Source of the DNA: Chrysomallon squamiferum
Taxonomy: Eukaryota; Animalia; Mollusca
DNA: 64,000 bases
Assembly (NCBI GenBank): GCA_012295275.1
Contig: CM022671.1
Location: 28,148,001 to 28,212,000 of the forward strand
Direction of reading: 5' to 3'
Shown here: positions 17,257-63,399 of the stretch, piece after piece
Position numbering within the stretch: the first letter of the stretch is position 1
Layout: every line of letters begins with the position of its first letter
Made by a program: the position numbers and the translations under genes
Notes under the pieces: model-generated
The model's input: the letters and a program-made list of their open reading frames with translations, nothing else
Told to the model about the DNA's origin: nothing
Databases searched by the model: none

Positions 17257-20200
17257 TCATTTCCTTTCATACATAAAACTTCTTGATGGATCTGTAGGGA
17301 ACACTTTCTGGCACTGGGTCATCAGTCTCTTCAGACCCTGATATAAAACAAAAACAATAAATTATTTGTACTCTATTAACTTGTTTATATAGTTCAAACT
17401 GGTTTTACAAGTAAATTGTACATAATTTTAAAAATATGTTTAATACTGGACAGAACTTTAAATTGAAATGCTGATTTATTTCAAAATAAATGAATTTTTT
17501 AAATGCAAACTTAAAAAAAAAAAACAGTTGCTGATTATGAAGAATATACTGCAGAAAACTGTCAGATACATGACTGATTGTTTTTCAGAAGACTTTAACA
17601 AACCTGAATGTATTTTCTCTGTGTTTCATCATTGAGCACATGGGCTACGTATCTTGAAGAAATCTTCTCACGACCAGTACGGGCGTGTATTCCAACCATG
17701 GTAACACCAATTGGCCAAGGAGCATTGCCAATAGCCATTTCCAGATAAGCATCATTAGCCTGCAACAAATATGAATTTTTGAAGTTAATTTTTTTATTGC
17801 AAAGTATTTTGTATTTTAAAACAGTGTTCAAATAAGGTTTAAGAGTAATATAGCTATAACCATACATAAAACAATCTAAAACCACAATGTCAGTTGTGTG
17901 TCACTTGACAAATATTAATTCATTCCAAACCATGCCATTTGGATATAAAAAAAAAATCTAAATAATCATATTAACCTTCAAGTAATTTCGATCCATCAAG
18001 TGTTGTACAATCAGAACCAAACTCTCCAAAATGTCTTCATCAACATTCTGAAAAGCACAAAAAAAATCTAATTTCAAACACATCAAAATTAAATTGTGCA
18101 ACTAAAATATGGAATTCTGTAGCAATTATAAAAACTTATTAATTTTAATATGCATTAAACTTAGAATTAAAATTTAAAAAAAAAAAATTAAATGTGAATA
18201 AAACTTGTAAACATATTACCTGGACAAAATAGTATAAACAATAGTTCACGTGTTTAATTACAACTGCAATACTTAGTTTCCACACTATTGTAATGGTATA
18301 TTCATATTTTAATAGTAACGTTATATAAATTTTAAAAAAAACTGAACAAAAAGAATAATTTAAATAAAAATCTAAGTACCTTGTTTTTGAGCTTTCTGAA
18401 CAGAGGTTTAAGGTAGCTGACAGTCTGTGTGTGATGTGCACTCTGTGTTTTACCTTTTGTTGTACGTTTTTCTTCTTCTGGTCTTTCATTCAGTGCTTTT
18501 CCCCACCTTTTTATAACATACTACAAAACAACAAAATAATAGAGTAAAATGCACTTAGTTAATTCTTAAATATCAGTTTCTTTTCATAAATTTATACTTG
18601 AAGCAGAAGAGGCTACTATTTTGTGCATATTATATGTTATTGTTATAGCCTACAAGTCTTAGGCCTAAAATAAACAAAACACAAACTGTTTGTAATAATG
18701 TCATAATAAAAATAATAATTACCTTAAAGAAACTTAGCATAATTTCCTGATCACGACCTGGATCGCCTGCTCCAAGTTCTTTTCTCATTTGCTGTTTTTA
18801 AAAAAAATTAAAAATACCCGTCAGTACATATTCAAGATTTCGTACGTAAGTGTTTAATATATAGACGTTGTGAATTTAATGCATTTTTGACATATCACAA
18901 TTTTAAAAAAATGTTTGGTATATCAAACAGCGTAAGGATCTCAACTTAAAACAATTATATCAAATGCCAATATGGTGGTTTGAAATGTAATTACTGCATT
19001 GCCCAAATTTCACATTAGTTTAAAATAACTATTATTTTTTCCCTTATTAAAAGCTAGCGTGTGCCAGTTATTATTTACTTTTTTAAATTCTTCTACAATG
19101 TTACTTGAATAATACAAACATATAGATTTTCTTCTCAATTACTATTTTCTGAACATACCGGTATATCTTCCACTCTTGTACCATCATCTTTTATAGACAC
19201 ATCATTGGAAATTATCTGTTCTCCAGCTGACTTTATAATCTCATTCAGATACTGAAGATCTACCTGGTCCATGGCATCTTTGAAATCATTTCCACCACGA
19301 AGTGCCTACAAAGCAAGAACAATGTTTGACACAATGACATAAAATTACAAACACAGTTAAATGAGATGCATTTTACTATTTGTATACTACTCTTTTTTTC
19401 ATTTCTTTTTCAATTTCAATAAGATAAAATCTAATTAAGTTAAATTACAGAGCAAAATGAAAATAAAAGAAAATAACAGTTTTCATCCAATTAAAAAAAA
19501 CACCTATTCCTGCTACGTTTAAATCCAAAATAACTGTTAATAAAAACCAGTGAATGATATAAAATAAAGAAAGGTTTTTTGAATATTATAATATAATGTT
19601 TCCTCTATGCAGGAATATCCTGCCCTTGAGACCTAAATTCTCAAATCTGTCTATAATTATTGATGTCTGCAGGCATCAGTTTGTTCAGCAAATGACACTA
19701 TTTACTCATGAAAAAGAGACCATGTCAATTCTGCCCTTTTGAAGATATGAAAAAATGCCCCTTTTTCTACCTGTGCCTTGCCCTTTTTTCATTCTGGAGG
19801 AAACACAATAATATGATTATCATTACCCTCTGATCAGGTTCCTGAGTTTCAAGTTTTTTCAGTCGAAGATAACTATCAGCATCACTTTCACCAAACAGTC
19901 TGATAGGCTCCCCTCGTTCCCTTAACCGGCGTATCACCTGAAAGAGTTTTTAAATTATATTTAAAAGTTGAAAGAAAATGGAAATTTAAGCATAACTAAA
20001 AATGACAATATGACCACTGAATGATTATTAATTAATTGCAAAAATAAATTCAAGACATTTTAAAGATTTATTTTTTGTCTAAAGAAATGCGATTTCCTTT
20101 CAGTTTACATGAAGTATTATGAAAATTATAGATATTTCTACAAAGTGTTTTGGTGTATATATATAAGTTTTTTAAAAATGTACAGCTACACTGAAGTTTT

Positions 20201-22195: not shown

Positions 22196-22511
22196 ATGGA
22201 TCTTATCATATGTTTATTATATGTGTTAATTATACCACCCCGATCGTGGACTCATGACGTAATCATCAGTACATACAACATATGGAATATTATGTTCAAC
22301 TGGGAATCGAGGAAATACCGGATTGCTGATATGGTAGCGTTTTTATATTTACTTTTTAAAGGGAATTGGAATCAATTATCTTAAGCAGACAAATGCTTCC
22401 AAAAAAGAAATTTAATGTAAAAATAATTCAGTTAAGATACGATGGTTCTACCGCATCAAAATAATTAAATTAAGATACTATGCCCCCACCCCCAAAAGGG
22501 AGATAACTACA

Positions 22512-22573
<62 letters not shown>

Positions 22574-25310
22574 GCACGCACACACACACACAAGGCTTTT
22601 GGTGTAATTAGAATTATGTAATACAGAGTTGACTTTTAAAGTAAGAATCAAGCAGTCTCTTGCATTTTGCACACACCATGGCTTTTTATACACTAACTGT
22701 AGGTCACTAGCTAGAACAAGAAACTGACCAATGAAAACACAGAGAAGGATTGATCCTGAAGCCAGTTATTTTAGTCAGGTGCTGTGCTTTCAGACTATAA
22801 CTCACTTTGTTCATCAGTTCTAAGCTTAAATACATCTTTATACATATCCCAATAATAATTTTGATCAAAGAAATATCTTGGCCTAATGGAAAGTTTGAAA
22901 CTGCAAACATTTTATAACTGAAAAAGTGGATGAAAAATTCATTGCATCATTTACATTTCAGATTCAAGAAACTAAATCAGATATCATAGCCATTCAGGAA
23001 GTTAGAATAAACAACAACAGAAAAGATTCCCAGATATCAGAACTGCAGAAATTGCTACCAGATTACAAATGGTCGGTTTACAAACCAGCAGACGTGATCT
23101 CAAAAACACTGGACCCTGCAATATCACCATGGGACAGAGAAGGTAGAATTGCAATTTATATTTTATGGTTATGTTTATTATATTTTTAAATTATTATTAC
23201 TGTTACATATTTATTTATTTCTCTTGATATCATTAATTAAATTGCAGATGCCAATCTCAAAATTGATTTTTACTGCTTTTAAAAGCAATTTCAACGTTCT
23301 TATAATTTTTGAAGTTTTGTAATTAAACATTATTTGAATGTTTTATAATTTATTATTACATCATAAATGTTTACCTTGTCTTTCACACACAAACACACAC
23401 ACACACACACACACAAAATCACAAACACATTTATATATATATATATATATATTTCTCTTTTTTCTGCAGGTGTTGGTGTGTTGAGTAAAAAACCTATTGT
23501 GAACTCATTCGTCCAGTATCTTGCTCCTCTTAATGGACCAGACACCAATAAACGAATTGCACTTCATGTTTCCCTTGATTTAGATGGACATTTAATTAAC
23601 ATAATAGTTTTACACATGTCGTACGACAGAGAGAGTCAGTGTAAACATGCAGCAGAAATCTACCAGTATATAACTTGTAAGTTTGGCTTTGCAAAATATT
23701 CATAAAAGAGTAACATGGAAATATATAAAATATGTTTAAACTGTCTCTATTTTTCACCAAAGGTACACTTTAATGTCGTTATAAAACATTTGGATAATGT
23801 CTATGATCTTTATGAATATACATATCTCTATCATATTATATAATATTATATTTTATAAGAAAAATATTACGTTATTCACTATACTGTATTTACAAATGCA
23901 AGAAAAATCTTTACATTTTTATTTTATTTATTTATTTATTTTGCAGCAAAGAAACTGAGTGATGTGATTATTCTGGGAGACATGAATATTTACAATGATT
24001 ATCCCTGGCCAGTAAGAATTTTCACCAGGAGTGAAATTAAGAGGAGTAGTCGTTGTTTTCCATTTGTTCAGAGATTCAGGAAGACAAAATTGACTATTTT
24101 TTATGATACTTGGCAGAATGAGAATAAAAGCAACATGGGACTCACATTTAGTAATATGGTAAGAAATGCCTTTTTTATATATATATATTTTTTTTCTTTA
24201 GTTAAGATTATCTCATTTTAAAAATGTCTAAAATTGCTTGCTTCGTGCATATTGTTGAATTTAATATTCATTTTGTGTAATTAATATCATTTTTATTCAT
24301 TTCACTACACAGATTGGATGGGATTAATATATATGTATTCTTTCAGGATACTTTTAACTTTGTAACTTTTAAGTATATAAATTCTAGTTAAATTCTATTA
24401 AAAAAATGAATGAAGTATTTAAAAATCAAACGGTTTTTAAATTAAGTTGTACTTTTTTCATTTTAATTTTTCATTTTAAATTCAGTTAAATGTATCAACA
24501 GTGGTGTTACATAAAAACAAAACATTCAAGCAGTTTTACTGTTTTACTAAAAATAAAATACCATACTATTCATTTAGCAAAAGTCTGATTTATATTTTTT
24601 TTTTTCAGCCTATTCCAGGACTGGAGAGTCGACCTGACAGGATTCTGGTTTCATATTCGTTCAAAACTATCAAAAGAACTCTTACTGGAAATGGAACAGT
24701 GTACAAAGAAAAATATTCAAGGACCATACAGATTAACAGAATAATGTCAGTAATGAGAAATTCTTTTTTCGTTTTCAGACAAAAATCAGGATATTCGTGT
24801 TTACACGACTGCGGTCCAAGGGGATCCTGTCGATGTGGGGTTTGTGTTGGAGGTCATTTAAATGGCTGTGAACTTCCCACTTGTAAAGAATGTGACCTCA
24901 CAGTATTCTGGAGGATTGTTTTATTTGCTGTTTTGTTTATAATGATGGCAGTGCTGACTCTGTATTCTGCACTTCAGGTGTTGATAATTTCAGCCAAATT
25001 TGACACAGAAATTCTGTTTTCCATCATGGGTTTCAAGTGTTGCCTTTTCAATCCTAAACTTTACATGTGCAAAAGAAATCAATTTAGGCTGTCCAGATAT
25101 TGCAAGATTTTCCGTTTTTTCAGTGTCCCTCCCATGTTTCTGTTTTTTGTTTCTGTGTACTCTTTATTTATTTTGTGTTTTGTAAGTGAGAAAGTATTTG
25201 CTGAAATGTTTGTGACTGTTAATGGAATTATGGAAGAAGAATTTTTCCCATCTGATCATCTGATGTATACTGTCCATCTTAGACTGAATCCAAAATACAT
25301 ATTGGAATGA
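22196..25310 (+). CDS. Uncharacterised endonuclease/exonuclease/phosphatase (EEP, DNase I-like fold) protein with signal peptide, Cys-rich motif and transmembrane segments
   Basis: Exons 22196-22333, 22962-23142, 23470-23676, 23947-24158, 24609-25310. EEP motifs appear in canonical order: TYNIWN, DIIAIQEV, GVGVLSKKP, LHMS, ILGDMN, PDRILV, PSDH. The N-terminus MDLIICLLYVLIIP is hydrophobic. Confidence 0.85.
22515..22591. repeat. Compound (CT)n(CA)n microsatellite
   Basis: Direct reading of the sequence. Confidence 0.95.
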
Positions 25311-25862
25311 ATTTATTTAGAAATCTACAGCAAAGTATTTTTGTGTCATATGTTAACAGACCAGAATTTTTAAAAATTATATATAGTTTTACTAGATGTA
25401 TGGTGAATGGCATGTGAGATTGGTTGTCTGGCTAGCAATGGTCTATCACTGGATGAACACTTTTTGACAGAATAATTTTTATTTTTATTTTTAAAAACGA
25501 CTGTTGTTGATTTTATTTTAAAAAAAAAGAAAAATAATAATAAAATAAATAAATATAAAGGCTTATAAATGAATCTTACCTAATGTTTATATGTTTATAT
25601 AGATTAAAGTTTACATTTCTCCCTGAAATGTTGCAGTGTTAAAAAAAAAACAATACAAGAAAATGCAATTTTATGAGAAATTGTTTTTTTTTTTTTTTTT
25701 TTAAACATATTTTTAGAAAAATAAAACAACAATGGAAATTAAAAATCTAAATCTGGTTAAAATTATTATAAAAATCTTAAAGCTAGGTTAGAGTATATGT
25801 TATCATTGTCGTCAGAACTGATGGGAACTACCTATGATTTATATTGCTATATTTCAAAACCA

Positions 25863-27576
25863 TTATATTTTTGTATCAATCTCTTCCTTAAGTTTGCCAG
25901 CAGAGTGGGAATCACGTATCTGGCGTTTTTCGTCTTTTGACATGAAGAGAATTTCCACTTCCTCTAGACTTTTTTCTTTTGTTTCAGGTAACAATGCAAC
26001 AACAAATAACAAGCCAAGAGTTGATATCCCTGCAAACAAGTAGAATGTTCCTGAAAAATTAATAAAATATTTTATCAATAATCATATAACTAGATGAACG
26101 TCAACAACAACATCAACAATAAAAAGAGTAATAATAATTTTATAAACTTTTATTATTAATAATAATAACCATACATTGGGGCTAAAAAGCTACATAAACT
26201 TATAGAGATATTAAAAAATGAATGATACAGGTACCGGAATCTGTTTAAATAACTGATAATTCAGAAGCTTTGGCTCATTACAGCTGAATTTATTTTTCAC
26301 ATTAAGAAATCCTGCATTTAAGAATTTAGAAATAAAGAAAGCAAACACTATCATTAATGTTCCTAACTTTGAATTATAATAAATAATGGTAAAAACCAAA
26401 AACATTAATTTTATTATTTTACTTAGACAATATCTAAGGTTACATTAGTTTTTTGTTTTTTTTTATTAATATAACTTTTTCATGATTGTATGAAATTAAT
26501 TTCAAAACAAAAATTACAATAGTTTTGTAGTGAAATAAAATTTAATGCTTACCATACGGAGTAACTTTTTCCGTTAAAGTTAGGAACGTCATGGATACGA
26601 TTAAATTTGTGATCCAAAGAGTGGCAGTGGCAATGGAGACGCATACTCCCCGAGCCCACAGTGGGTAGATTTCTGCATTGATTGTCCAAGGCATTGGTCC
26701 TAAACCTACAACAGAAAGTTGATAATGCATTCCCGAGAACAGTACTATTAAAGGAACAATGTGTTTAAAAAATTCCAAGAAAAGTAAGAAAGAAAATATC
26801 TTTTTCAATTCAAGTGTTACTTTTATATATATATATATATATAACTTTGAACAGAAATCAAATTTAAAAAAAAAAGGGAACGTTTTTCGATAATTTAAAG
26901 TATACAGTTTGTACACCTGATTTTTAAATATATTTTTTATTATTATTATTTAAAAAAAAAAAAAAAAAAAAAAATATTATAAACTGAACTTTTTATTTAT
27001 TTATTTATTTTATTTTTTTAATTTATTTTATTTATTATTATTTGTATTTTAATTATTATTATTGTTATTATTATTATTTATTTATTTTTATTTTATTTTA
27101 TTTAATTTTAATTTTATTTATTTATTTAAATATTTTATTTATTATTATTTAATTTTTTTTCTCTCTCTCGTATCTTTACAAAATGAAAAAAAAAAAATGA
27201 TGTCTAGAATCGTGAAAATTGTTTTAAATTCAGCTTTATGAACCTGGAGCGAATGCCAGAACAAACAGAGTCATTCCCAAGACAGGAATCCAGGTATACT
27301 GATTTGGGCAGTAACCGTACGACCATTTATATATCGAAGATTCTGTAGAAGAATTGCATTTCCCTACCAGGGACGTCATCTCGTTGCGCGCGGGCAAACA
27401 CGTGGAGTGCGCTTCGCCGTCGTAGCAAAACCCACATCCTTTATCTTTGATACACGATTCACAAAAGCTGCAATGCATCAAAACAGATTTTTGTAATTTA
27501 ATATGATTTCAAACATTAAACAGAGAAATGCATCTGTCTAATAATAATTGCAACTATGCAATAAAATAATAATTTA

Positions 27577-27610
<34 letters not shown>

Positions 27611-28311
27611 TCAGATGGATATTCCTTCATTTAAAAAATCGCGCCGAACAAAAATAAAAATGATAAAAAGAGGTAGCCTCTTTATTGTTATCTGCGGATA
27701 TTAGTTTTTTTTTAACTAGACATTTAAATAAATCGTACTCATATTGCTGATGACATCGAGTAATCCGAGTTCCATTGTCGTACGATTCCATTTTAGTCTT
27801 GTTTATAACAGGCGAGTTGATCACTGAGAGCTGGAATCCTATAGCCACCACAATCAGAGACAGTACAACACCTGAAAACATATACATATACATACATATA
27901 TACAGACACCCAGACACATACACACACATACACACACGTGTATATAGTATAATCGAACATTCCATTATAATCATTTTTAAAACAGCGATTTTACAGGCAG
28001 ATTCTTTTCTTCCCTCTTCTCTGTGACTTGCTTCGTCTGTCTTTGCATAATTCACTGTAGCATATAATACTAAACATTTACATTATTCAGTTTTGTAGTG
28101 TATTTCTTTATATAATGTTTTTTCAAATATATGTTATAAGCATAAATATCCTAATATGATTCGTTTATTTGGATTTCATCCTCTAAATGTATTTTTGTTT
28201 TCGGATAAGTACTGGATGAAGTTCGTAATAATTATAACAAATGCTTTCGTCCTGAACTAGTATGTAATTAAATTGCATTCGATAAGTCATACTGTTTAGA
28301 AAACTTATTCT

Positions 28312-28347
<36 letters not shown>

Positions 28348-29017
28348 ACTTCGAGGCGAGTCGAAACCAAAAAAGGACCAATCAGAACGTCCAAGACATT
28401 ATAATTGAAAGTTATTATTAGGATTTCTGGTTTCTGCGCACGTGACCACATTTATAAGAAGCATGCCGACATTCTTACCTCCGATACTAAAACAGAGAGA
28501 CAGCTTCCTTCCGAATCGTTCGACAGCCCATAGACCAAAAAATGTGGCCAGAACCAAAACGGCATTAGGAATACACACCAACCAAATGGCATGTCTCACA
28601 GGAAATCCCGCCATTTTTAATATGGTACCGCTGTAGTAACTGTAAGAGATTAATAATAATAATAAGAAGAAGAAGAATAGGAAGAAGAAGAAGAAGCAGA
28701 AGAAGAAAATAAAACAGTTGTAAAGCAGTTGAATATATTTTAAGTTACTGATTCTTTTCTACGTACAGTAAACAAAACTCAAAGTGTATTTTAGAAAAAA
28801 AAAAGAAATATAACATGGGAAAACATACACGTATTAATTAATAGAACTTGAAAAATATTAATTACTACAATAGTCCTTTTTTTTTTTCTTTTCGGATTTA
28901 TATTGGTGAAGCTTGTAAACTCACTGAGCTCGAATAAATACAGTTAGCTAACGTAACCCAAAACCGTTCTAGCGTTAGTTTTTCCAAACGTCTTATAATT
29001 GCATTTCTCATGTTCAG

Positions 29018-29083
<66 letters not shown>

Positions 29084-29548
29084 AATAAATAATGATTTAA
29101 AATATATTATGTTTATTCTAAATTAGAGACAAACAAATAATAATGTCAATAGACTTACAAAGACTTATGTAATCTAACTCAGATAAATATAATACTAATT
29201 TTCCCTTGACTTGCAAATTATAATCCTTATATTGTTTACTATGCTATATTTAGGATAGCTAATACTCACATAATGCTATTGATTCCACTGAACTGTGCAA
29301 AAACACACAACCCGCATCCTATGAACAGTGCTTTCCTGACGTAAGCTGTCGTAAATATTTGTGTTACCACTCCACTCTTTGTTTGTCGTTCTTCAGTGTT
29401 AGAAATAAAATAAAGTTTATTTATTTATTTATTTATTTTGTTGTTGTTATTTTTGTTTTTGTTGTTATTGCTGGAGTTGTTATGCATACAAACACGTTCA
29501 CCACACAGATGACACCCTCATATTTAAAACATTACGTCTGTCGTAAAA

Positions 29549-29579: not shown

Positions 29580-32500
29580 GGCTGTCTGGCAGCGCTATTC
29601 TACAGTACATACGAAACAGAAAACGGTGGGTAATATTTCATAAATAACAAAGAATATTAAGTGCATTCTAATTAACGTCAGGTCGTTGAACGGTCGGTCA
29701 GAATGCGTAACCCGGTCGTAAGTGGGTTCAAGATAAGTGGGTTAGATCTCGATTGAATTTTTGATGGATGATGAGATCGATAAACGTAGAAGCCCACTGT
29801 GAAGGTTTACATTCTAGACATGACTCCAAACTATCAAAAACCCTGGTTTGGGGAATCGCTTATAAAATTCGTTTTCTTAATTATTAATAACCTTAATGCG
29901 ATGTCTGTTGATATTTTTTTTTTTTTTTTTTTTATGTAACTATTATAAAATCAAAATCTATTAACTTGTTAATGTTAAATTATGCCGAGTGTCTTAAAAC
30001 AATTATTCATTTATTATATTTTTACACACACACACACATACTGAGCATATTCACTCTTAATGAAACTGAATAGCTACCCATATCTGATTTCACTGTTTCA
30101 ATGATCGAAGACAGCGACATTTCGACTTCGTCTGCTCTGCTAACACGTTCTAGAACAGCACGTGCTTCCTCCTGGCGTCCCTTGATAACGAGCCACCGCG
30201 GACTTTCAGGAAGAAACACGAAGGAGATGAACTGAATTAAAGCTGGCAGAGCTCCCAGACCCAACATGTATCTGAAATGGGTTTAAATGTTAACATTGAT
30301 TTTTGGAAACAGTTATCGACGTCGTTCTTCTTTCTCTTATTATTATTATTATTATTATTATTATCATCATCATCATCATTAGTGGTAGTAGTAACAGTTA
30401 CAGTAATATTTTGATTTAGGTGTATATTACTTCATACATTATGTACATATAAGCACTTACACGTTTATACACGCCAAACAAATGTGCATCCATACTGATA
30501 TAGACAGTCAAACAGATGCAGACAGATAAAACTCGGACACACCCATGCACCCACACTTATACACACATATATATACACAGACCACCTCTATCTGTTGATA
30601 TATGTTAATATATATACACAGGGCCGGCGTCAAGCGATGGCATGCAGAAGGAGGGGTGTCGAACGGGCGGTGGCACCGGACATCCAAATTGGGGGGCATC
30701 CAATCAGAGAAAAGAACTTAATAAATTTGATTAATTTATATATAAATCAAATAAAGTGTTTAGTTTATGTTTCATCTGTGTTTACATATTCAAATTATCT
30801 TCCTTTCTCATAGAATTTCTCAGTATTAGGCCTTATACTTGAGTCTTTGGGGCATACAATCAAGGAGTTGGCCCCGGCCTCACCAGACTGCACGTCACTG
30901 CGCCTTAGGCAAGGTTAGATTCCGGCAAAATTAAGACTAGAATAAACAAACATAAATACAGACATTAATGATGAACCAGCAGCTTAATGGACAGTTGAAC
31001 AGTCACTCAATACGAATATACCTGAAACCCAGTTTAGCTGAGGGATAAATGTAGTCATTTAAATATCCCACACAGGCCATTTCTTTCCTTGTTTATACAT
31101 TAAAATAAGGAGTTACCATTTTGGTTTCCGCGGCAAACTGAAGGTTTCGTATACGCGTGGTTCTACGGAAACACTCATAGCCTATAAAAACACACGTCCT
31201 GATGGTTTCGTGTACGCGTGATTTTCACTCTTATTTTGCTTGTTCCGGTCAGCCTGGCATTTCGGATTTGTTTCTGTATGGAATAAACGAGGATAAAAAA
31301 AAAAAAAAAAAAACCTAAATAAAGCTGAAATTTATTTATTTATTTTTACAGAACTGTTGTTGATTTGGAAAAAACTGCGCCCCCTGAAATAGTGCCCTAG
31401 GTGGCTGCCTATATTGTATCGCCGGCCCTGTATATATTTATATATATATATATATATATCCGTGCGGACATATTTCCATACATATGTCGCATGATCGTCC
31501 TTCTAGAGTTCCATGAAATACAGTGAAACTGGTTTATCAAAGCGTGCTAAATACTATACGGAGACGCTTATCAAAGATCCAAGGCTACTAAGTCTTAACA
31601 TTAGGGCCGATTCTGAACGACCTTTCTATTTCATCATTATGCAAATAACGTACGAGTGACATTTAATAACCGTTACAGTTAAACTGTGCTATGGTATCTT
31701 CAAGCGTATAATGTTTAATTTATTCGCGTAAACACGTATCGTTACATGCATGCACATATGCACACACTGGAAAACGCAAAAGATGCATCATGTTTCCCTG
31801 TTAATGTAAGCATATTTCTTAAGTACCTCCATCCCGTCGTCTTGTTTTCACTCAAGAGTCCAGCCATGATACTGGATAGCAAAATTCCGATACATATAAA
31901 CAGCTGATTCAACGTTACTAGACGTCCGCGAATGTCAGGGGGAGATGACTCTGCAATGTACACTGGAACCATCATCGAGGTGATACCTAATTTAAATGTT
32001 CAATAATATTTTGAAAATCAAAAAAAAAAAATATATATATATATATATCAAATGCATTCTTAAAATAAAATTTAATATTTCTAAAACATTTATATTCAAA
32101 AACATACTGAAAACAAAAAGTTCAGTTGGCTCCATACTATATTAAATTAGTATCGTAACCTTACAAAATTTCTTTAAAAAAAAACAAAAAAAAAACGAAA
32201 AACAGAACAAGGAAATAAAGAAAAAAAAAACGTTATTATTGTTAATAGCATAGAAATTAAAAAAAAAGGTATGGGGTGACTTACCTACAGCAACGCCTAC
32301 AACCACTCGTCCCACGAACAACACCTCTTTGGTCGGTGCCACCGCCATGACAACAGATCCAATGATGAATATAACATTGGAGATCATAATCGTTTTCTTG
32401 CGTCCAAGAAGATCTCCAATGTGACCAGAGCACAGAGAGGCCACGGCGGCGGCTGCAATGGTTCCGCTCACGATCAGTTCGTGCCAGATCGACTGAAGGT

Positions 32501-32621
32501 TGAAATAAGGCTCGATTAACAGCATTGAACCGGAGACGATGCCGGTGTCGTAGCCAAATAGCAGACCTCCTAACGTGGCACATCCTGCCAGTATATAAAC
32601 AAACGTACGTTGAACGGCCAT
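25863..32621 (-). CDS. SLC2A13: Proton myo-inositol cotransporter-like sugar porter (MFS), divergent paralog A
   Basis: Nine exons, approx. 32285-32621, 31828-31986, 30078-30271, 29270-29390, 28479-28639, 27738-27871, 27244-27468, 26552-26705, 25863-26050. Motifs GGLLFGYDTG, DLLGRKK, PVYIAESSP, PESPRWL, ERFGRK, the HMIT-type Cys-rich loop (CESCIKDKGCGFCY...YCP), PMPWTINAEIYPLWARG and LPETK. The exon 3 donor is ambiguous (30078 or 30042). Confidence 0.9.
29020..29092. repeat. (TAA)n/(TAAA)n microsatellite
   Basis: Direct reading of the sequence. Confidence 0.9.
30619..31430. mobile_element. Non-autonomous DNA transposon (MITE, hAT-like termini) in sugar-porter A intron 2
   Basis: Perfect 11-bp terminal inverted repeats CAGGGCCGGCG (30619-30629) / CGCCGGCCCTG (31420-31430), 812 bp. 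Flanks TATATACA / TATATATT match 6 of 8, a possible decayed 8-bp target duplication. No transposase ORF. Confidence 0.75.
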
Positions 32622-33990: not shown

Positions 33991-34857
33991 TCACATTTTA
34001 GTCACTTCCACAGATTTAGTATAATCGTTTTCACTTGGAATTTCTATTTCGTATACCCCTATGTTTTCCTGCAGTTGTTCCCGCTCTTTCTTTGACATAA
34101 ACAGTAATTGCACTTCCTCCAGAGTTTTGTTCTTAGTCTCTGGCAAGAAAATTATTGTAAAGATCATCCCAGCGAAACAGATGCTTGCAAATAACCAAAA
34201 TGTACCTGGAATTGTAATGAAAGAAATTAATATCCACTGTTTGCAAAGATTAAGTAACGGAAAAATACTACTCAGTTTATGTGATACAGGATGATACAGA
34301 GATTTAAAAAAAAGCTGATGTATTGTTTGTTTAAAACAGATTTATAATTTTTGTCGTTATTTTGCTTTGATTAAGTCCATAATTAAATTCTGAATAGAAC
34401 TGACTGTACTGTTATTAACTTCTGAGCTTTGTTAATAAAGATTCAGAAAGGTAATTAGTGCATTTTCTTTTTTTGTTTTTTCTTTTCTTAAATTAAACAA
34501 TATTCTATTATTTATTTTATTTTAAATTAAACAATATTCTATTACTTTTTTCTTTTCTTTTTGTTTAAACTAAATATAATAATCATTTCTTTTTTTTTTT
34601 CCATATATGGGCTATATATTTCATCAGCCCGTTAAGTATACATAATATGTGTGTGAAAGTGTAATATTTACCATATGTCGTAATTGTTTCAGTTAGTGTC
34701 AGAAAGGTGAAGGATACGACAAGATTGAAAATCCAGTTGACGGCGGTTGTCATAGCAATACATGTACTTCGTGCCCACAGAGGGAATATTTCAGAGTTTA
34801 TTGTCCATGGCATTGGCCCCAGACCTTGAATAAAGTAACGATAATCAGTAATTGTAA

Positions 34858-34906
<49 letters not shown>

Positions 34907-35886
34907 TGCTACTACATATTAAATACAACATCTATTTTTAACAAATGAATTAGAATAAGATTATTAACGAACAGAAATAAAAATTATAAGATATAATTTA
35001 ATAAAAAAATAAAGAAGCATACAATTAAATTTCAGCAACATCAAACTAATTAATGTCGTAAAACTAATCACATAGTAATTTAAAGAATAGTAACAAACAA
35101 AACAAGTTAAGAATATGTACCTGGTGCAAACGAAACAACGAACATGGCCAGCCCCAAAACAGCCATCCACGAATAGTCTGTGGGGCAGTAACCTTGTGCC
35201 CAGTGCATTCCGGAAGAGGAAACACCGACAGCGTTACAGCGGCCATATTCAGCTCTTTCCTCTTTCTTATCCATTTGAGCTGGTAAGCACGTTCCGTTGG
35301 CGATGTCATCGTAGCAAAATCCACACCGACTGTCTCTGATGCAGTCGTTGCAGATGCTGAAAACAGTTACATAAATGTTTAGGTTTTCAAAGAATAAACT
35401 AAACATTTGTTGAAAAATAACATCATGTGCGTTTTAAAAATACAATTTTATTTCAAAACTTTTCACCGCCAATAAGCTATTACCATTATTTTGCTAATAT
35501 CTGATGTTCCTAAATATGTGAAGATATAAAGAAATAATTGCATGTGTATCTGATTCATCCAGATAAATTTTATGAACTAAGTTAATTATTTTTGTGGATG
35601 TTTTCATTTTAATTTTTTGGCCAGTGTTTAGTTTTTGTTTGTATTTGATTCATTTATTAATTGTGAACTTCATTTAAAATGTTATTAGATTAACTTTATT
35701 TAATCATTTAAATAAATGAAAGGATAAATAAATACTGACGAATATTTGACGTAGCAGCTGTCAGTGATGACTGTGTCGTTTCCATCGTACGTTTCTGTGA
35801 TGTTGGTGTTGATTTGTGGCGAATTGTTTGCTGATAACTGAAATCCGATCGCCAAAATGCCAAGGGAAATAACCACTCCTACGGAG

Positions 35887-35941
<55 letters not shown>

Positions 35942-37633
35942 GAAATTTTAAAGTGATTTGAAACTGAATTACCTTTCAAATACATATTGAATATTGCAGT
36001 TTTATATTTATTATTATTACTTAAAATTATTATTATTAATTAATTTCAATTTACATTAATATCCATTGCATTAATACTTGAAAACAATGCAGAATTTTAC
36101 TTACTGAAAGGACCTTTTACAGAAAATAGAATATCCTAAAATAATTATAGTATATTAATCATTTGCTTTATGTGGTAAACTATTAAACGAGTTCAAACAT
36201 CTATTTAGATGTTAGGACAGAGATGGGATTTTACCTGCAAAACTAATCACAATCAATAATTTACGACCAAATCTCTCCACAGCCCAAAGACCGATGAAAG
36301 TCGACAAGAAGTTTATTGTGTCAGGAACCATCACCAACCAAATTGCATATCTAACCGGAAATCCCGCCATTTTTAGAATAGATGCGCTGTAATATCTGCA
36401 AAAGTCAGTACTTTCCGAAAAGTTCTAATAATTACGGTTATAATTATCACTAAAAACAATGCCAAAACAATTATTTTTCGATGACATAATCTTGTGTTCT
36501 TATCAGATTCAAAAAACCATGTTAGATCTAACATTTAATTGTACGGCCTTTTGACTAGTACGATATAAAACCAAATATACTAATTAAAGTTACAGGTAAC
36601 TCATTGCAAACGCGTTGATCTACATTAAATGGTATACTGTAATGTGGAATACGTCAAGGTTATTTTGATACGCAAATACTGGTTGTTAATCGACACTGAA
36701 CTTTATGATTGTCGCGATGTAAGTGCCTAAAGTGCTCATTTTCACGTCTAGGGGGTGAGTAAATACAAATTGTAACAATAATTTATTATAAATTCATTGG
36801 ATAAATAGCAATCAACAAGTGTGCAGGTTCAGTTATTTATTTATTTACAAACATTTTGTATTTTGTAATAATATGCAAGAAATAAAAGCAGTTAAATTAT
36901 TTAAAATACGGAATCAGCTGAATCCTAATTAAAGACGGAATCTGTCGGAGAGAATCTAATTACGTTGATATGCCGTTATTTATATTAAACAAGTTATGTT
37001 ATTTATATTAAACAAATGCGCCATTGGTAACACAGAAAACACTGCATAATGTCGGTACCAAAAACAATGTAGAAAAGTATCTTGCCAAACGCTTATCGAA
37101 GCAAGGTCAAAGTTTCAATGTTCTCTCTCGAAACCTCCGTGTTCATCAAAGGAACCACCTGGTTCAGTAGATGCCTGCTTATCTTTGCTTCTTCTCAGAC
37201 CCCGATGTCCGTATATATTACATTCTTGCGGACGTTAATGAAAACCATGGAATGAAAGAATGAAAAGACGGAAAATTTCAAAACTATGTTTCTTTCTCAC
37301 ACAAAAAAAAAACCTCCATATTTTGGACGATAATTTACTTAATTTAGAAATTTAAAAACTACCTTAAAGAGTTCGTCATCGCGTACTTTCCTGTAAAAAG
37401 ATGTTACTGATGGTCAAACAGAACTTTAATTATCTGCAATTATCAATAATATATGCAACAGAAATATATCTACTGAAACACAGTTTCATAGATATGCGGG
37501 TTTATGTCTTCGTCGCAAAGGTAACTAATTACGATTATTTTCAAAGCTGAATTCGAATTTATTGTCCGCAAATTCGTCCTTTATTTAATTGGATTTGATA
37601 CCATGAGCGACTTATTCAAGCACACTATTCATT

Positions 37634-37677
<44 letters not shown>

Positions 37678-40190
37678 TGTATGTATATATATATTTATAC
37701 ACATACATATTTGCTGATTCTTATAAGAGTTAATAGATCTGTTTTTCTTACTTACATGACAGTGTTTATTCCACAGAGCTGCTGGAAAAGCTGAAGTCCA
37801 GCTCCAACAAAGAGAGCTTTCATCACGTATGGAGTACTACACACTTTACCCAGAACGAAACCTAAAAAAACAGATTTTAAAAATACATTTTCACAAGTCA
37901 AGAATATACGCTTACAAACACGAAGTCTGGATTAGTTGTTTTCGTTTTTATTTATTGAATTGACATTTTTACCATGTTTGGACTGTTTATCTTGATCGAT
38001 GCCTTTCTGTATATCTTCAAGTTCTTTGCTGACGTCATCATGTCCTCTAATTCTCACAAGTACAGCACGAGCATCTGTACCTCGTCCTTTGCTCAGAAGC
38101 CAGCGCGGACTTTCAGGAAGAAAGAAGAATCCGAAGAATTGTACCATCCCAGGCAAACCGGCTAATCCAAGCATATACCTGTAAAAAAAAAAAAAAAAAA
38201 AAAAAAACACAATACAAACACGTTTAATATAATTATTCTGTAAGAATGAAACATTTAAAGGGAAAACAAAAAGAGTTAAACAGTGTATAATATTAATATT
38301 ACAATCTAGAAAATAAGTATTTTTAAATTATAAGTACTAATGGTAGACTATATTAAGCAGTAACAGATAAACAATTTCCATCTAGCTGTTTATAGTGTAG
38401 CATAAGCGGATAAAAAAAAACCCACAAAAAACCTACAAAATTCACGTGTTGCTATCACTGTGATAAATCTAATTTTAAAATGAAACGATTTGCATTACAT
38501 AGAAAAGAAGAAGAACACGAAGAAAAATAACAGCCAAAACAAAACAAAACAAAAATTCGATTGCCAAAAGAATATAAAGGCAAATCAAGGGGCACAAATG
38601 TGTCCCAGCCCAATGGATCCGGGTACACAGAATCACTGCATTACCTCCAGCCTGTGTCCTTTATCTCGCTGAACGCACCAGCAATCAACGCGGAAAGGAT
38701 GATGCCTATTGTTATAAACAACTGGTTCAAGGTCACCAGACGACCTCTGATAGGAGTTGGGGCGACTTCAGCCACATACACGGGAACAGTCATGGAAGCA
38801 AATCCTGAAAATAAAATATTTTGAGTCTAAATTTAACACTTCTAAGATAGTTAATGACTTAATGATAAATTTAATTCTTAATTTATGATCTACGGTTTAT
38901 TGCTGTTGAAGTATACTAGATTTAACATTCTAACATTTTAATTTTGACGTACTATAATCAACGATGGAAATGGGTTTTAGGAATCAGAACAGGGTTTAAA
39001 AAGTTCATGAGGCCCAGGCTGGGAAAGACTGGACTGTTAGACATTGTAAGTCCCTCCGTGAAAATCTTTTTGTAATCTGAAAATGCAATTTGTTATTGCG
39101 GGCTGATAATAGAAAAAGAATTAACTAATCTATAACGTGCCCTTATCTAAAGACTGTCGTAACAGTTTCCAATCAGGAAGTTCGTATACACATTTATTAG
39201 CTCACTGAACACAAAATGTGTTTTTGATTTCCATTAAGATGCCTTTATATGTTGTTTAAAAGAAATGAGTGAAATATTGCAAGAATGACTTTTTATTTCC
39301 TAGACAAAGATTAGCTAATAAACGTGTTTGACTCTGCACTAGTACAGAAATAGGACATAAACCGGAAGCTAAAAACTAGGAGAGCGCCCACCCCCCGTTT
39401 CCATCAATGACTGTTTTTCTTGTTAAACTGTCTGACGGTGTGCTTACCTGACCTTCTCAGAATAATCAAGTAATCTCCCACAGTTATATCAGTTTTTCAT
39501 CGAAAAATATTGTAATTTGTCAAAAAAAGTGTTTTAATAAATCAAGCAACCCTATAAGATTTGCCGTTTCCGCCAATAACTTGTCTGTATTCGATTTTGA
39601 GTGACAGTGCTTCAAAGCATTGTATTTTTATTAGACAGCGAACAGTAAAATTATAGATCACTGCTAAGGGTTTATTCAAAGTACTTTGGGCAAAAATGGA
39701 ACATAACATGTTATTACATCGGAAAGGACCTCGAGGTAGCAATCTAGTCAAAAGAGTGGACTAGATGGTGTATTGCGGAACTGTAATCTAGACAAACTGT
39801 ATCAAATGCAGTTTTTTTTTTTATAAAGATGTTTTGGTCACTTTTACATGATAAAGAGATTTAAGTATACGCTTTAATTCTTTCGGCGAATTTAATTATA
39901 TAATTCGCAGATTATCGTTTTTATTTAATATCTATTTATAAAATAAGCTTCATGCTTTATAAAATATAAACAAGTATTAATATTTTATTATTAAACTATT
40001 ATTATTTTCTTCTTTTTTCCATACATGTTGTCTTACAGTAGTTTTTATTTGTTTTTATTTTAAATATATCACTGTATCAATAAAAACTTACCTTCAATAA
40101 ATATTTTCAAACATTATTTTATTAAAAGATTTGAAAATTTCTACTTAAAGTAATATTGAAAAACAATAAAACAAAATAAAAAACAGTAAA

Positions 40191-40228
<38 letters not shown>

Positions 40229-40886
40229 TAATAATAATAATAACAAAAAAATAAATAAAAATAATAAAAAAATAATAAAATAATAAATAAATAGTAGTAA
40301 CAGCAGCAGTACTAATAGTAGTACTACTACTACTAATAATAATAATAACAGCAATAAAAATAATAATAAATAAAACAAGCAAATAAAAATTAAATGAATG
40401 AATGAATTAATAAAGTCAACACATTTATTTTCTGAAATCTGTCATTTCCAATAACAGTTCTCTGTACTTACCTATACCTATACCGACAACAATTCTTCCT
40501 ACAAGCAGAATTTCCTTGGATGGCGACGCTCCCATTAAAGCAGCTCCTCCTGTAAAAACAATACTAGCAAACATGATTGTTTTCTTTCGTCCAAAGAAAT
40601 CTGTACTGAAGCCAGCTACAAGAGAAAACAATGCAGCCGCACCAATAGTGCCACTGACGATGATCTCTGTCCATATTGTATTGAGGTTGAAGTACGGTTT
40701 TATCAACAGCATTGCTCCTGAGACTATTCCCGTGTCGTATCCGAACAGCAGGCCACCCAGAGTAGCGAAACATGACAGAAAATACACAAATTTCGTATTT
40801 TCGCATTTTGGAGAAGCTGCACTGTCAGTATCGGCCGTTATGTCGACACTGGTTCCGTTTTTACCTTGGTGTTTTTTCTCATCCAT
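33991..40886 (-). CDS. SLC2A13: Proton myo-inositol cotransporter-like sugar porter (MFS), canonical paralog B
   Basis: Nine exons, approx. 40471-40886, 38645-38803, 37973-38178, 37755-37861, 36234-36395, 35740-35879, 35121-35356, 34672-34824, 33991-34205, with the same intron positions as paralog A. Motifs GGLLFGYDTGIVSG, PESPRWL, LQLFQQLCGINTVIYYS, Cys-rich loop, PMPWTINSEIFPLWARS, NWIFN and LPETK. Ends ...VEVTKM*. Confidence 0.93.
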
Positions 40887-50396: not shown

Positions 50397-50580
50397 TATC
50401 AAAATGCGAAAAAAAAATTTACAGAATAAAAAATCCTAAAGTATAGTTTCTAAACAATTTGCATGTAGTAACCTGTAAACACGAATAGACTGGCCACTGC
50501 ATAAATATTTCGCTTTGGACTACACGCGGTTTTATTTTTGTTTTATCATGTGATTTTTTATCACATCACATGCATTTATT
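50397..50580. promoter_or_regulatory. Very short bidirectional promoter ZMYND10 / fucosidase
   Basis: Only 184 bp separate the two start codons. Forkhead motif TGTAAACA at 50474-50481. Confidence 0.65.
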
Positions 50581-51337
50581 ATGGCTGCTTTAGTCAAATA
50601 TTGTTTTTTCATTTGTTTCTTAGCTTTATTCGTGGACTGCAAAAAATATAAACCGAACTGGCCATCGATAGATTCTAGGCCGCTTCCTTCTTGGTACGAT
50701 GAAGCAAAATTAGGCATTTTCATTCACTGGGGAGTATTTTCAGTGCCAAGTTATTCGTCAGAATGGTTTTGGTGGGGTTGGCAAGGCCAACATTTGCCGG
50801 CAATCGTCAGTTTTATGGAACAAAACTACAGACCTGATTTCACATATGCCGATTTTGCGGCACAGTTTACAGCAGAATTTTACGATCCTGTAGAATGGGC
50901 AGAACTTTTTGCGGGATCGGGAGCAGAGTGTGTACATTAAAAATATATAATTATATTGCATCAAACTAAATGTACATTAATTCATGTAATTTATCTCAGT
51001 ACATAACTCAGTAACTGCATTTTACGTTATTATAATCAAATTTTTATTTATATCTTTACGTAGCATTCACAATTATTCTAAAACATCAAAGATTAATTTC
51101 TATTATCTTTGTTAAAAATAATTTCATTTATTTTATTCTTCATGTCATATTCCACCTTCAGGATTGTTGTATAATACAGTTTTTTTTCCCCCTGCTAGAT
51201 ACATTGTATTTGTCAGCAAACATCATGAAGGCTTTTGTAACTGGGCCACTAATGTATCATTCAACTGGAATTCTGTGGATTATGGTCCAAAAAGAGATAT
51301 TGTTGGTTTGTTAACAATTTAATATTTTTTAGTTTTG

Positions 51338-51378
<41 letters not shown>

Positions 51379-51964
51379 TTTTTCGTTATTATTTTTTTAA
51401 ATTTAAATTTTATTATTTAAATTCATAAATACTATTTTGATTTATTGATTATTATGATTTTTAGAAACTATTTTATATATTATTGTTGACTCTTCAAAAT
51501 ATCTTATATGTGTATATATGTGAGTGTGTGTGTGCAGCAATAATTATTTGTAGACTGTGTCTATCTAATAATTTAAAGTTAAGTTATATATATTATATTT
51601 ATTAAAATATATATTTCTATTTAACAGGTGAACTGGCAGATGCTGTTCGATCCAAAACCAAAATGCATTTTGGCTTGTACCATTCTTTGTTTGAATGGTT
51701 CCACCCACTTTATTTGCAGGACAAGGCTAACAACTTCACTACAAACAACTTTGTCACAGTCAGTTTAAAAATAATTTATTTAGAGACAGTTGTCAATTAT
51801 TATCATTTGTTTTACTGAACATTAAAACAGTTTAGACAAAATTATCAGTTTGTTTCATTAAATAAAGCTGTTTTATAATTCTCTTCCAAATAACATTCTC
51901 GCATAAGCCAAGTCACTATAGTTCTTTAAAAAATATAGTTAAACTGTCTTTAAAAAAATAAAAA

Positions 51965-52004
<40 letters not shown>

Positions 52005-54399
52005 TGAGTTACAGTCAGTGATATGTTTTTCGGAATATTTGTAAAATGATGACATTGAATTCAATTATTATTTCACTTAACATTATTTTAAATTTATAAT
52101 ACATTTTTCACAAGTCCTGACAGAAAGGGGAAATGAATAATTTCATTAACTTTTAACAAAATATTAATGTATTTTCAGGATAAAACTATGCCTGAGTTAA
52201 AAGAGCTGGTCACTAAATACAAACCTGAAATCATTTGGTCAGATGGAGACTGGGAAGCTCCTGATATTTACTGGCAGTCCACAGAATTTCTTGCCTGGCT
52301 TTACAATGACAGGTACCAGCACTTGTATTCACTTATTTTTGTATACAAGAATAGATTTGATCTTTTATCAGTCTGTTGTTGTGGTGGCCAAAGTGTCAGT
52401 CATTAGTCTGTTTTGTTTTAGTTTGGCATCACAGTTAATATAAGCTCTACAGATAAATTGATGTATCTTTCACCTCTCAAACATATGAAATTTATTGTAT
52501 TTCGCACTTAGGTTAAACAACTGTGGCCACATTTAATAAAAAATAACCAGTTAGTACCTGCTTATCAAGTTATATTCCAGACACGGTTCTATAAAGTGTC
52601 TTGTATTACAAAATTTGTAATTTGTTTGTTGATTTTTTTTTTTCATTTTTTTTGTTGTTCTTTTTTTCATCTTTTTAATATTTAGATCTTACAGCTTGTG
52701 GATGTTACTTGTATACATTTTTTGAAATGTTGAGATGAGAGTTTTATTGTTTTCAGTCCAGTGAAAGACACTGTTGTCACAAATGACAGATGGGGCATTG
52801 GTGCTTCTTGTCACCATGGTGGATTCTATACATGCAGCGACAGGTTTAATCCAGGTAAGACAATTAAATAGTATTGTTTTGTTCGTGTTCATTCATTCTT
52901 TTTCTTCTTGAAACAAAATTAATGTTTTGTTGCTTTTTTTTAATGTTTGTTTTTATTTTTCCTGTACAAGGATATTTGCATGTTAATACAAGAAAATAGC
53001 TTTTTAACCATCCTGCAAAACTGAGTGAATTTTTTAACCTATAGTTAGACTTCATAGCTAAGGTGCAGTATGTCTCAGATTCAGTTCTTGTTAGTATGTA
53101 TACAGAGTTTTCATCATACCATTCTAAGCTGTTGCTATTTGAAAGCTATATAAATACAGTTATGTGAGCAAAGAGATTTTGTTTTGCAGGAACCCTTCAA
53201 AAGCACAAGTTTGAGAATGCTATGACCATTGACCGTTATTCGTGGGGTTACAGGAGAGATGCCAGGCTTTCAGATTTTATGTCAATGGAAGAACTCATTG
53301 GCACATTTGTTGAGACTGTCAGGTAAAAGAAATGACTACTCATATAAAAAGTCATTATTGGATCAGCAATTAGCATTAATATTTTAGAAAGCATAGAATC
53401 TATATTTTTATAAGAATGTTTTATATAGTGTGGAAAATACATTTAAAATCTTCCAAATTGGCAAATTGTGAAGTAAACTGATCCTAATTTTGGAAATGTT
53501 TTTTTTTTAATGTTTAAAGTCTTACATTTTATGTATCTATTTATTTTCACTTGTTTTTTTTTTATATGTTATATTTTTTAATTTTATTTAATAAACAAAT
53601 ATAAATAAAGTTTTGTAAAAAACATTTTGCTTTTTTTAAAAAAAAATTCATATTTCCAAGAAAGTAAAATTTACTATTTTATATAGTTGTGGAGGAAACA
53701 TGCTGATGAATGTTGGACCAACCAAAGATGGAATGATTATTCCAATATTTCAAGAACGGCTGAAAGGCATGGGTCGTTGGTTATATGTGAATGGAGAAGC
53801 TATTTATAAAACTAGACCATGGGCTTACCAAAATGACACTGTCACAAAGAACGTTTGGTATGCTACAAAACAATAATTATTAACTCTGGCTAATACATTT
53901 TACACTCTTGAAATTTACTTCTTACGTGGCTCAAATTAGTGATATTTTTAGATTATCTCATCAGTAAACATCCTCTTTTAAATTATGTAATTATAAAAGT
54001 TACAAATCACGTGATGGAAAACCAACAGAATTTATCTTAACTCATTATTTGCTTCTTGACAGAAGATGGTATATCTATAAAAGCTATTTCCGATAATAAA
54101 TCAATCCAGCAATATTTTTAAATGAAGTGGTTATTTTGATTTTTTTTTTTTTTAGGTACACTTCAAAGGAAAACAATGTTTATGCTATTGTTCTGTCGTG
54201 GCCATCAGATACCCTTTTTCTTGGAGCACCGACACCTTCTGTCTCGACAACTGTTAATCTTCTTGGGTATAAAGGAAGTTTTGACTGGAAGAAAGGTGCA
54301 ACTAGGGGAATGCAAATAACCATCCCACCAATATCCATCAATGATATGCCTTGTGAATGGGCTTGGGTTTTCAAACTCACTGAATTAACATACGATTAA
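50581..54399 (+). CDS. FUCA: Alpha-L-fucosidase (GH29), spliced
   Basis: Exons approx. 50581-50927, 51199-51305, 51628-51758, 52179-52312, 52757-52854, 53190-53322, 53687-53837, 54156-54399. Signal peptide followed by [40 protein letters not shown], catalytic nucleophile motif IWSDGDW, VTNDRWG, SWGYRR and [10 protein letters not shown]. Confidence 0.96.
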
Positions 54400-62372: not shown

Positions 62373-62681
62373 GTAAACTCTTCATCTTATACAATAATTT
62401 TTTTTTTACATACTTGATTTTACAATCACTTATATGTGTACTACATTTTATAAACACACACAGAGTAATCAATTCCTTTTACACTCACTATATTGGTAAA
62501 CTCTTCATCATTTATGTAATAAAAAAATTATTAACATACTTGATTTTACAATTAATTATATGTCTACTGTATTATATATAGAATACACTCACTTGTAAAT
62601 TGGCTGTACAAATAAATAACGTCTTGTGTAAAGAAATTGTGATCGATTTTTAACCTCTGCCTAAATGTAGTTTGAATTCTT

Positions 62682-62821
62682 TGTGCAGTGTATGGTGTGT
62701 TATCAGCTCGACAATAGTGAGTTTACTGTTGGGTTATTAAGTGCACCTAGATAAAACTGGGAGATGTGCCGACAAATAACTGTGAAGAACAGGGAATCTG
62801 TGCGATTCATCTCCCACAAAA
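62682..62821 (+). ncRNA. Box H/ACA guide RNA (probable scaRNA, U2 snRNA pseudouridylation), copy 1
   Basis: Hairpin 1 closed by GTGCA 62683-62687 / TGCAC 62742-62746, H box AGATAA 62749-62754, hairpin 2 closed by TGGGAGATG 62758-62766 / CATCTCCCA 62808-62816, and ACA 62816-62818. UGAG and GAAG lie in the apical regions. Both pockets are complementary to U2 snRNA. Confidence 0.85.
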
Positions 62822-63206
62822 TACTAATTTTACTTTGTACAATACAAGAAAATAGAGATGTACCTTTAGTAATAGAAACAAATAACCTTAATACATCCTG
62901 TTATCAATATTATTAAGTTGTTTTAATTTAATAAAGTATGATAATAAAATAGATTTCTCACTTGTAAGTTAGTTATACAGGTAAATCCTTCATCATTATT
63001 CATGTAATAAAGAATATTTATCTACTCAATTTTACAATTAAATATGTCTATCACATACACTTTTACTGTATAAAGAAATTGTATCTTTATACAGTAATCA
63101 AATACTTTTACACTCACTTGTAAGTTGGCTATGATAGTAAATCATTTCTTGTATAAAGAAATTTTGATAGATTTTAAACCTCTGCCTAAATGTAGTTTGA
63201 ATTTTT

Positions 63207-63346: not shown

Positions 63347-63365
63347 TACTTATTTTACTTTCTAC

Positions 63366-63399
<34 letters not shown>

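Follow-up and report, generated by a model that had tools for sequence, protein, structure and literature searches.

What could a sugar porter carry when three of the polar residues lining its sugar-binding site have become hydrophobic, and is such a gene still maintained? This question is raised by a locus of Chrysomallon squamiferum, the scaly-foot snail (assembly GCA_012295275.1, contig CM022671.1, positions 28,148,001 to 28,212,000). The window, that is, the whole stretch of 64,000 nucleotides analysed, consists of AT-rich DNA of animal type with short introns and contains two tandem sugar-porter genes, here named A and B, both on the minus strand in head-to-tail order. The altered copy, A, is a real, conserved and expressed gene, and its link to symbiosis is one that we infer. 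As a named carrier by which chemosymbiotic animals may draw carbon from their bacteria, A, a conserved and rewired sugar porter likely to be strongly enriched in the symbiont organ, is a testable candidate with B next door as a control.

Three polar sugar-binding residues are replaced in A

A (32621-25863, minus strand) comprises nine exons that code for 556 amino acids, and its 556 codons contain no internal stop, which bears out the open frame reported in a preliminary description of this DNA; the span given there (26552-29390) covers only exons 4-8. B (40886-33991, minus strand) also has nine exons and codes for 596 amino acids. GT and AG bound all eight introns of A, whose phases match those of B, and the two proteins are 58% identical. 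Transmembrane helices are abbreviated as TM, and sites are named after GLUT1 residues.

32285..32621, minus strand: exon 1 of A, from the ATG to TM4, with TM1 Asp25 (32549-32547) and TM4 Arg105 (32309-32307)
31827..31986, minus strand: exon 2 of A, end of TM4 and TM5, with Gln140 retained (31906-31904) and Thr replaced by Cys144 (31894-31892)
30078..30271, minus strand: exon 3 of A, TM6, PESPRW motif and intracellular helices, with Ser210 and Ser218 for a conserved Arg and Glu
29270..29390, minus strand: exon 4 of A, TM7, with Cys259 (Q279 site), Ala262 (Q282 site, 29298-29296), and Gln263 and Asn268 retained
28479..28639, minus strand: exon 5 of A, TM7b and TM8, with Leu299 (N317 site, 28557-28555)
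27739..27871, minus strand: exon 6 of A, TM9 and the beginning of the Cys-rich outer loop
27244..27467, minus strand: exon 7 of A, Cys-rich loop and TM10
26553..26705, minus strand: exon 8 of A, TM10b and TM11, with Trp450 retained and Leu473 (N411 site, 26619-26617)
25863..26050, minus strand: exon 9 of A, TM12, PETK motif, short tail and stop
33991..40886, minus strand: paralog B, nine exons, with the canonical Gln/Asn/Asn pocket; its ortholog is XP_041349242/247 of the vent snail Gigantopelta aegis

Residue 1 of A was set at the first in-frame ATG of exon 1, and the junction of exons 3 and 4 is backed by the sequence of P0186, the ortholog of A in G. aegis. An ATG-led stretch at about 32915-32870, ending in a GT donor, could be spliced in frame onto exon 1 and would add about 23 residues; it may be due to chance.

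The Gln, Asn and Asn of B are replaced in A by Ala262, Leu299 and Leu473, just as had been described, and the three pairs of motifs quoted for A and B are all present on the minus strand. The placement of the third site on GLUT1 N411 was confirmed by a direct alignment, in which exon 8 of A matches GLUT1 384-432 without gaps. Leu299 falls on N332 of STP10 in the alignment of exon 5. Exon 4 aligned weakly (E 1.1) to GlcP, whose QQ pair meets Ala262 with its first Gln. Placed via the homologue P0007, the three sites correspond to Q288, N325 and Q415 of XylE. Only N411 was aligned to GLUT1 directly; the sites of Ala262 and Leu299 we take to be GLUT1 Q282 and N317 by the established numbering.

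The TM1 Asp, TM4 Arg and TM5 Gln are unchanged (Asp25, Arg105 and Gln140), in agreement with the earlier claim, and the Q161, Q283, N288, W388, W412 and N415 sites are retained, Gln140, Gln263, Asn268 and Trp450 among them. A thus lacks the canonical monosaccharide pocket (Gln at Q282, Asn at N317, Asn or Gln at N411) and keeps the part of it formed by Q161, Q283, N288 and W388. Two further polar residues have become Cys, namely Cys259 at the Q279 site and Cys144 in place of a TM5 Thr; both are common to the ortholog.

The cytoplasmic motifs had also been called intact. This held for the signature motifs, since the translation contains two A-motifs, PESPRW and PETK, together with the TM7b gate Asn268; it did not hold for two conserved charges of the intracellular helices, an Arg and a Glu, which are Ser210 and Ser218 in A and in its ortholog. 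At 30141-30115, where these Ser residues lie, both proteins have an Arg one place later, which may alter the inner gate.

The loss of substrate contacts together with that of the two intracellular charges would suit a non-transporting sensor or membrane scaffold. Yeast sugar sensors of the Snf3/Rgt2 type have long C-terminal tails and keep the pocket. The tail of A, about 40 residues after PETK, is shorter than that of B, and A has kept its gate Asn268, its Tyr pair, Asp25 with Arg105 and its signature motifs, so that a sensor is very improbable and the sensing role once suggested for A found no support.

A and B belong to an HMIT-like branch outside SLC2A13

In the searches HMIT/SLC2A13, the H+/myo-inositol transporter, was the nearest named family. 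A shares with it the TM1 Asp and TM4 Arg, an outer loop with eight Cys between TM9 and TM10, and an Ala at the GLUT1 E380 site. A Cys-rich TM9-TM10 outer loop is a hallmark of HMIT; the eight Cys are present in A, B and P0186, and four of them are invariant in 76 aligned rows. Membership of the sugar porter family was borne out for P0186, which scored 285 bits against the TIGR00879 cut-off of 237.8; exon 1 of A as a fragment reached 66.6 bits, below that cut-off. A predicted model of P0186 (without TM1-3; pLDDT 89.5) had GLUT3 as its best Foldseek match, with GLUT5 and XylE among the best thereafter, and gave the major-facilitator fold with its intracellular helices, not the geometry of the pocket. 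No HMIT structure was found among 59 PDB matches.

A quick tree of 81 rows and a careful tree of 37 rows were used to place the two genes; the rows of the careful tree were picked by hand out of about 220 proteins so that named species were represented. The quick tree put A and B within a mollusc clade of 55 rows (SH-aLRT 99) distinct from the one containing the fish slc2a13 proteins and P0185 of G. aegis. A and B thus do not group with vertebrate slc2a13. In the careful tree A and P0186 grouped at 100/100 and joined Haliotis, caenogastropod and heterobranch rows at 97/93, while B joined a separate set spanning the same gastropod groups (91/92). A recent tandem origin of A from B was considered and rejected, as a tree forcing A and B together had an AU p of 0.0008. 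A is predicted to work as a sugar porter of the major facilitator superfamily, of the HMIT-like branch, and is not an SLC2A13 ortholog; the pair stems from an old gastropod duplication in which neither copy is the SLC2A13 ortholog. It follows that B as a myo-inositol transporter, the baseline implied in the preliminary description, is not established. The automatic name "proton myo-inositol cotransporter-like", borne by P0186, covers molluscan genes that lie outside the SLC2A13 orthologs and whose products may transport different solutes; the genes already stand as supplement rows under an automatic name. A literature search, confined to top matches and with most subscription papers outside its reach, returned no publication on the pocket of A.

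B itself has an Asp in TM8 at residue 321 (exon 5, 36395-36235), three residues before the Asn of the N317 site; in its orthologs and the majority of relatives this position is occupied by Asn or Phe. With a new acid predicted beside the pocket, B would not be a fully typical baseline either.

The pocket was remodelled stepwise

Among 203 homologues of at least 400 amino acids, Gln at the Q282 site was retained in 191, Asn at N317 in 161 and Asn at N411 in 149. All three were lost in just two of the 194 scoreable proteins, P0186 and the unnamed P0091. The set was then enlarged by 131 of 145 further representatives, those no longer than 800 amino acids, and 113 were scored; five of these had lost all three residues, and only one, P0277, had apolar residues throughout. 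Among homologues named as animal, the triple loss was confined to the ortholog of A. The fish slc2a13 clade differs in another way, having mostly Asn, Thr, Val or Ser at Q161 and Gln at I168, whereas A alone is without Q282, N317 and N411. GLUT1/GLUT3, XylE, GlcP, STP10 and PfHT1 resemble A in fold (by the ortholog model) and at the Q161, Q283, N288, W388, W412 and N415 sites. The glucose-bonding residues of the solved sugar porters are described as identical except for one TM10 site (PMC8154325); A departs from them at three glucose-bonding sites.

Within the 17-row clade of A, N411 was retained in none of 16 scoreable rows. The gastropod sisters (Haliotis P0007/P0220, Aplysia, Lymnaea, Littorina and Babylonia) are therefore like A in having lost it and unlike A in having Gln at Q282, which is present throughout this clade except in A and P0186. 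Leu at N317 occurs in seven caenogastropod rows and, separately, in two Patella rows, and Gly at Q282 in two oyster rows, P0030 and P0035. Because the loss of N411 is clade-wide, that of N317 recurrent, and Q282 was altered independently in oysters, the pocket has been remodelled stepwise and repeatedly, with A as the extreme case. A, B and the gastropod sister clade form a natural series at sites described as fixed, in which N411 went first, N317 repeatedly and Q282 last. The stem branch of A is long (0.70, against 0.23 for B), and the subsequent tips measure 0.14 and 0.16, lengths which point to a burst of change followed by renewed constraint.

The Q282-site Gln was also replaced by Ala, independently, in the unnamed P0231, P0241 and P0246, two of which have Cys at N411 as well, hinting that the two sites may change together.

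A is conserved and transcribed

The best match of A was XP_041349243 of G. aegis (P0186; 77% identity) and that of B was XP_041349242, so that the accession of P0186 adjoins that of the ortholog of B. P0186 has Cys, Ala, Val and Leu at the Q279, Q282, N317 and N411 sites; it shares the Cys, Ala and Leu with A and differs from it by the Val. Across one shared set of 431 columns, identity is 78.7% between A and P0186, compared with 79.6% and 81.9% between B and its orthologs (p 0.27). The full-length protein of A itself was found neither in the homologue searches nor among the best 150 representatives.

Between 0.29 and 0.36 of the sampled words of A were present in four RNA runs. Reads were placed on 25700-26960, which holds exons 8-9. 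Exon 8 was covered free of differences in three of three runs; in the same number of runs examined, contigs skipped intron 8 and then continued from exon 8 into exon 7, a joint that was absent from run X5. Two contigs, of 2031 and 1994 bases, could hold the A message in full. In X5, ten differences from the window were listed and none fell within the 341 coding bases (p about 0.02-0.03). Synonymous sites between A and B are saturated (pS 0.81, pN 0.27), a comparison that is uninformative on recent selection.

A decaying duplicate under relaxed selection would agree with the long stem branch, with the ortholog model lacking exon 1 and with the plain count of pocket changes, which is not significant (see below). 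Stops, frameshifts, lost splice sites and absence of RNA, the marks of a pseudogene, are not seen in A. The open frame, the spliced RNA, the lack of coding differences in X5, an identity to the ortholog like that of B, and the recurrence of this pocket in a genus whose lineage diverged 116 Ma ago speak against decay, which the ortholog identity already largely answers and which we consider barely credible. On the same grounds the earlier view that A is not decaying stands, and A is almost certainly maintained by selection.

A very probably corresponds to a gland-enriched gene

The gene block in the window runs HDAC11, TIM17, PRPF18, A, B, ZMYND10, fucosidase and CPT2, the neighbours being presumptively named from their exon translations. 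Two of them are located as follows.

17598..19949 (approximate exon span), minus strand: PRPF18-like gene, same-strand neighbour of A and anchor of the gene-order argument
50554..54396 (approximate), plus strand: alpha-L-fucosidase-like gene, synteny marker

The same block is found in the published gene tables of the scaly-foot snail (82.20, 82.43, 82.44, 82.45, 83.14, 83.16 and 83.13) and in those of G. aegis, on ctg126. PRPF18 is 82.43 in the tables. Since PRPF18, A and B are consecutive on the minus strand and the tables contain the run 82.43, 82.44, 82.45, A should be 82.44 if the numbers follow position, and by these serial numbers it is very probably the gland-enriched copy. According to the supplement of PMC7142155, mean expression of 82.44 is 1011 in the oesophageal gland and 20 in other tissues (fold 57, false discovery rate (FDR) 1e-67), and that of 82.45 is 55 and 13 (fold 4.7). 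In the published supplements searched, a length or sequence for 82.44 was not found. A motif search of the window for MED31, a gene that would have lengthened the comparison of gene order, gave no match.

The oesophageal gland derives from the gut and houses bacteriocytes with symbionts. PMC7895826 reports high expression of lysosomal genes in the gland, an independent gain of endosymbionts by the two snail genera, and a split of Gigantopelta from the scaly-foot snail 116 Ma ago (71-184). A likely acts in this gland. As the pocket change is older than the split of the genera and the symbionts are reported to have been gained independently, it is more likely that the pocket of A arose for the digestion of bacteria and was co-opted afterwards for symbiosis.

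The counterparts of the fucosidase and CPT2 genes (50554-54396 and about 56000-64000, plus strand) are gland-enriched as well in the scaly-foot snail, 3.5- and 2.6-fold, and the block may be co-regulated in the gland. Fucose transport, suggested by the neighbouring fucosidase, was rejected as evidence because the block also contains PRPF18, TIM17 and CPT2.

Proposed mechanism and substrate of A

The reading that we favour, with a probability of about 0.5, is that A would transport, coupled to protons, a sugar or cyclitol in which the hydroxyls matching C2 and C6 of glucose are missing or masked; the substrate is deduced from the residues. Proton coupling is probable, and there is good reason to expect that the substrate preference of A differs from that of B, whereas the assignment to C2 and C6 in particular falls slightly short of even odds. 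In this mechanism, protonation of Asp25 would release TM1 from Arg105, Gln263 and Asn268 would keep hold of a pair of adjacent hydroxyls and shut the TM7b gate, and the ring oxygen and C1 hydroxyl would still be taken by Gln140 and Trp450. Ala262 with Leu473, plus Cys259 and Cys144, would leave an apolar gap where C2 lies; the C6 side would be filled by Leu299. Candidate cargo would include pentoses, sugars of the 2-deoxy or 6-deoxy type, N-acetyl amino sugars and cyclitols in deoxy or methyl form, as from digested bacteria.

The TM1 Asp and TM4 Arg, both present in A, are necessary and not sufficient for a proton-coupled porter. The Asp/Arg latch is described as the basis of proton coupling and the gate Asn (Asn268 in A) as binding the C3 and C4 hydroxyls (PMC8154325). 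In PfHT1 the equivalents of Gln140 and Trp450 bind the ring oxygen and C1 hydroxyl, and Q305, at the Q282 site, is required for glucose and fructose and makes no bond to a sugar without the C2 hydroxyl (PMC13095657). The Asn of the N317 site faces C6 of glucose, and replacing it in yeast carriers (Gal2 N376V/F, Hxt36 N367I) makes them disfavour glucose, with xylose retained (PMC11466781, second-hand). XylE Q288A and Q415A lose xylose transport, which N325A retains (PMC7427733, second-hand). By analogy with the Gal2 and Hxt36 mutants, which have the same change of the TM8 Asn to an apolar residue, it is plausible that A was retuned towards a substrate with fewer hydroxyls or of greater hydrophobicity; unlike A, where the change is natural and accompanied by two more, these are single laboratory changes in uncoupled yeast carriers.

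Several observations speak against this reading. When every change is counted, pocket sites show no significant excess over other conserved sites (4/19 against 16/175, p 0.11); for strong polar-to-apolar changes alone they do (4/19 against 2/175, p 0.0009), with a cut chosen after seeing the data, and the plain test was significant in two of ten control lineages (caenogastropod rows, p 0.044; Sinanodonta P0143, p 0.0001). The RNA support comes from a single study and a single ortholog of A was found, whose model begins at exon 2, so that its Asp and Arg are unseen; the missing exon 1 reflects either incomplete annotation or a true loss. The link of A with 82.44 depends on gene numbers and not on sequence, and the numbering is not always positional, as 83.13 and 83.16 are out of order. 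Digestive gland was sampled for gene prediction only, so that enrichment in the oesophageal gland is indistinguishable from enrichment in the gut, and in G. aegis one of five models of the block is gland-enriched (log2 fold change 3.96, FDR 0.024), which is not assignable to the ortholog of A. GLUT1 Q282A and N317A are reported to reduce uptake and not to abolish it (PMC9867014), GLUT2 has the TM1 Asp and is yet uncoupled, such that Asp alone does not prove coupling, and the specificity of sugar porters is said to be frequently set outside the pocket (PMC8154325). Bacterial matches named inositol transporters by source annotation have Leu at N411 and Ser, Ala or Gly at N317, and GlcP, a glucose carrier, has Leu at N411; therefore two of the three changes alone do not exclude inositol or glucose. 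The substrates considered for A, B and their clade are predictions from sequence.

The last observations bear on a first rival, that A still carries inositol or a plain polyol or hexose with lower affinity, higher capacity or another stereoisomer, its pocket having been loosened and not re-aimed. Besides the bacterial proteins named major inositol transporters, which lack both N317 and N411, the Leu of GlcP and the partial uptake of the GLUT1 mutants, a low-affinity carrier would suit high expression in a single tissue. Those bacterial proteins, however, mostly retain the Q282 Gln and carry Glu at Q161, XylE Q288A loses transport, and the triple loss is as rare in the first homologue set as given above, so that we regard a loosened pocket as unlikely.

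The changes of Gln to Ala and Gln to Cys add volume on the C1/C2 side, with four more changes in the adjacent TM4, and could accommodate bulkier cargo, such as a glycoside or a disaccharide fragment with an extra group in that space. The same site changed independently to Gly in the oyster P0030/P0035 and to Ala in three unnamed representatives, and fungal lactose and cellodextrin porters may also have small residues there. At the other two sites Asn to Leu preserves volume. Sugar porters of beetles became specific for glucosinolates, though no pocket residues were given for them (PMC8113468). Bulkier cargo is, on balance, quite improbable.

Within the favoured reading of a proton-coupled carrier for sugars or cyclitols altered at C2 and C6, A could be, in peltospirid vent snails, a dedicated proton-driven carrier of deoxy- or amino-sugars from endosymbionts that are digested or leak, moving them out of an acidic bacteriocyte vacuole, rewired before the split of the genera, co-opted twice and working without three fixed contacts. 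So specific a role is speculative and, on present evidence, rather unlikely.

Further observations

Other altered pockets were seen in molluscs, in P0115 and P0126 (G. aegis), P0019 (Patella) and P0143 (Sinanodonta), with changes comprising a TM10 Trp turned to Leu, a His and an Asp occupying Q282/N288, and alterations at 9 of 19 pocket sites along with a TM1 Asp turned to His. In the window, a gene at 22400-25310 (plus strand), tail to tail with A, has nuclease/phosphatase-like exons, a Cys-rich stretch and hydrophobic segments.

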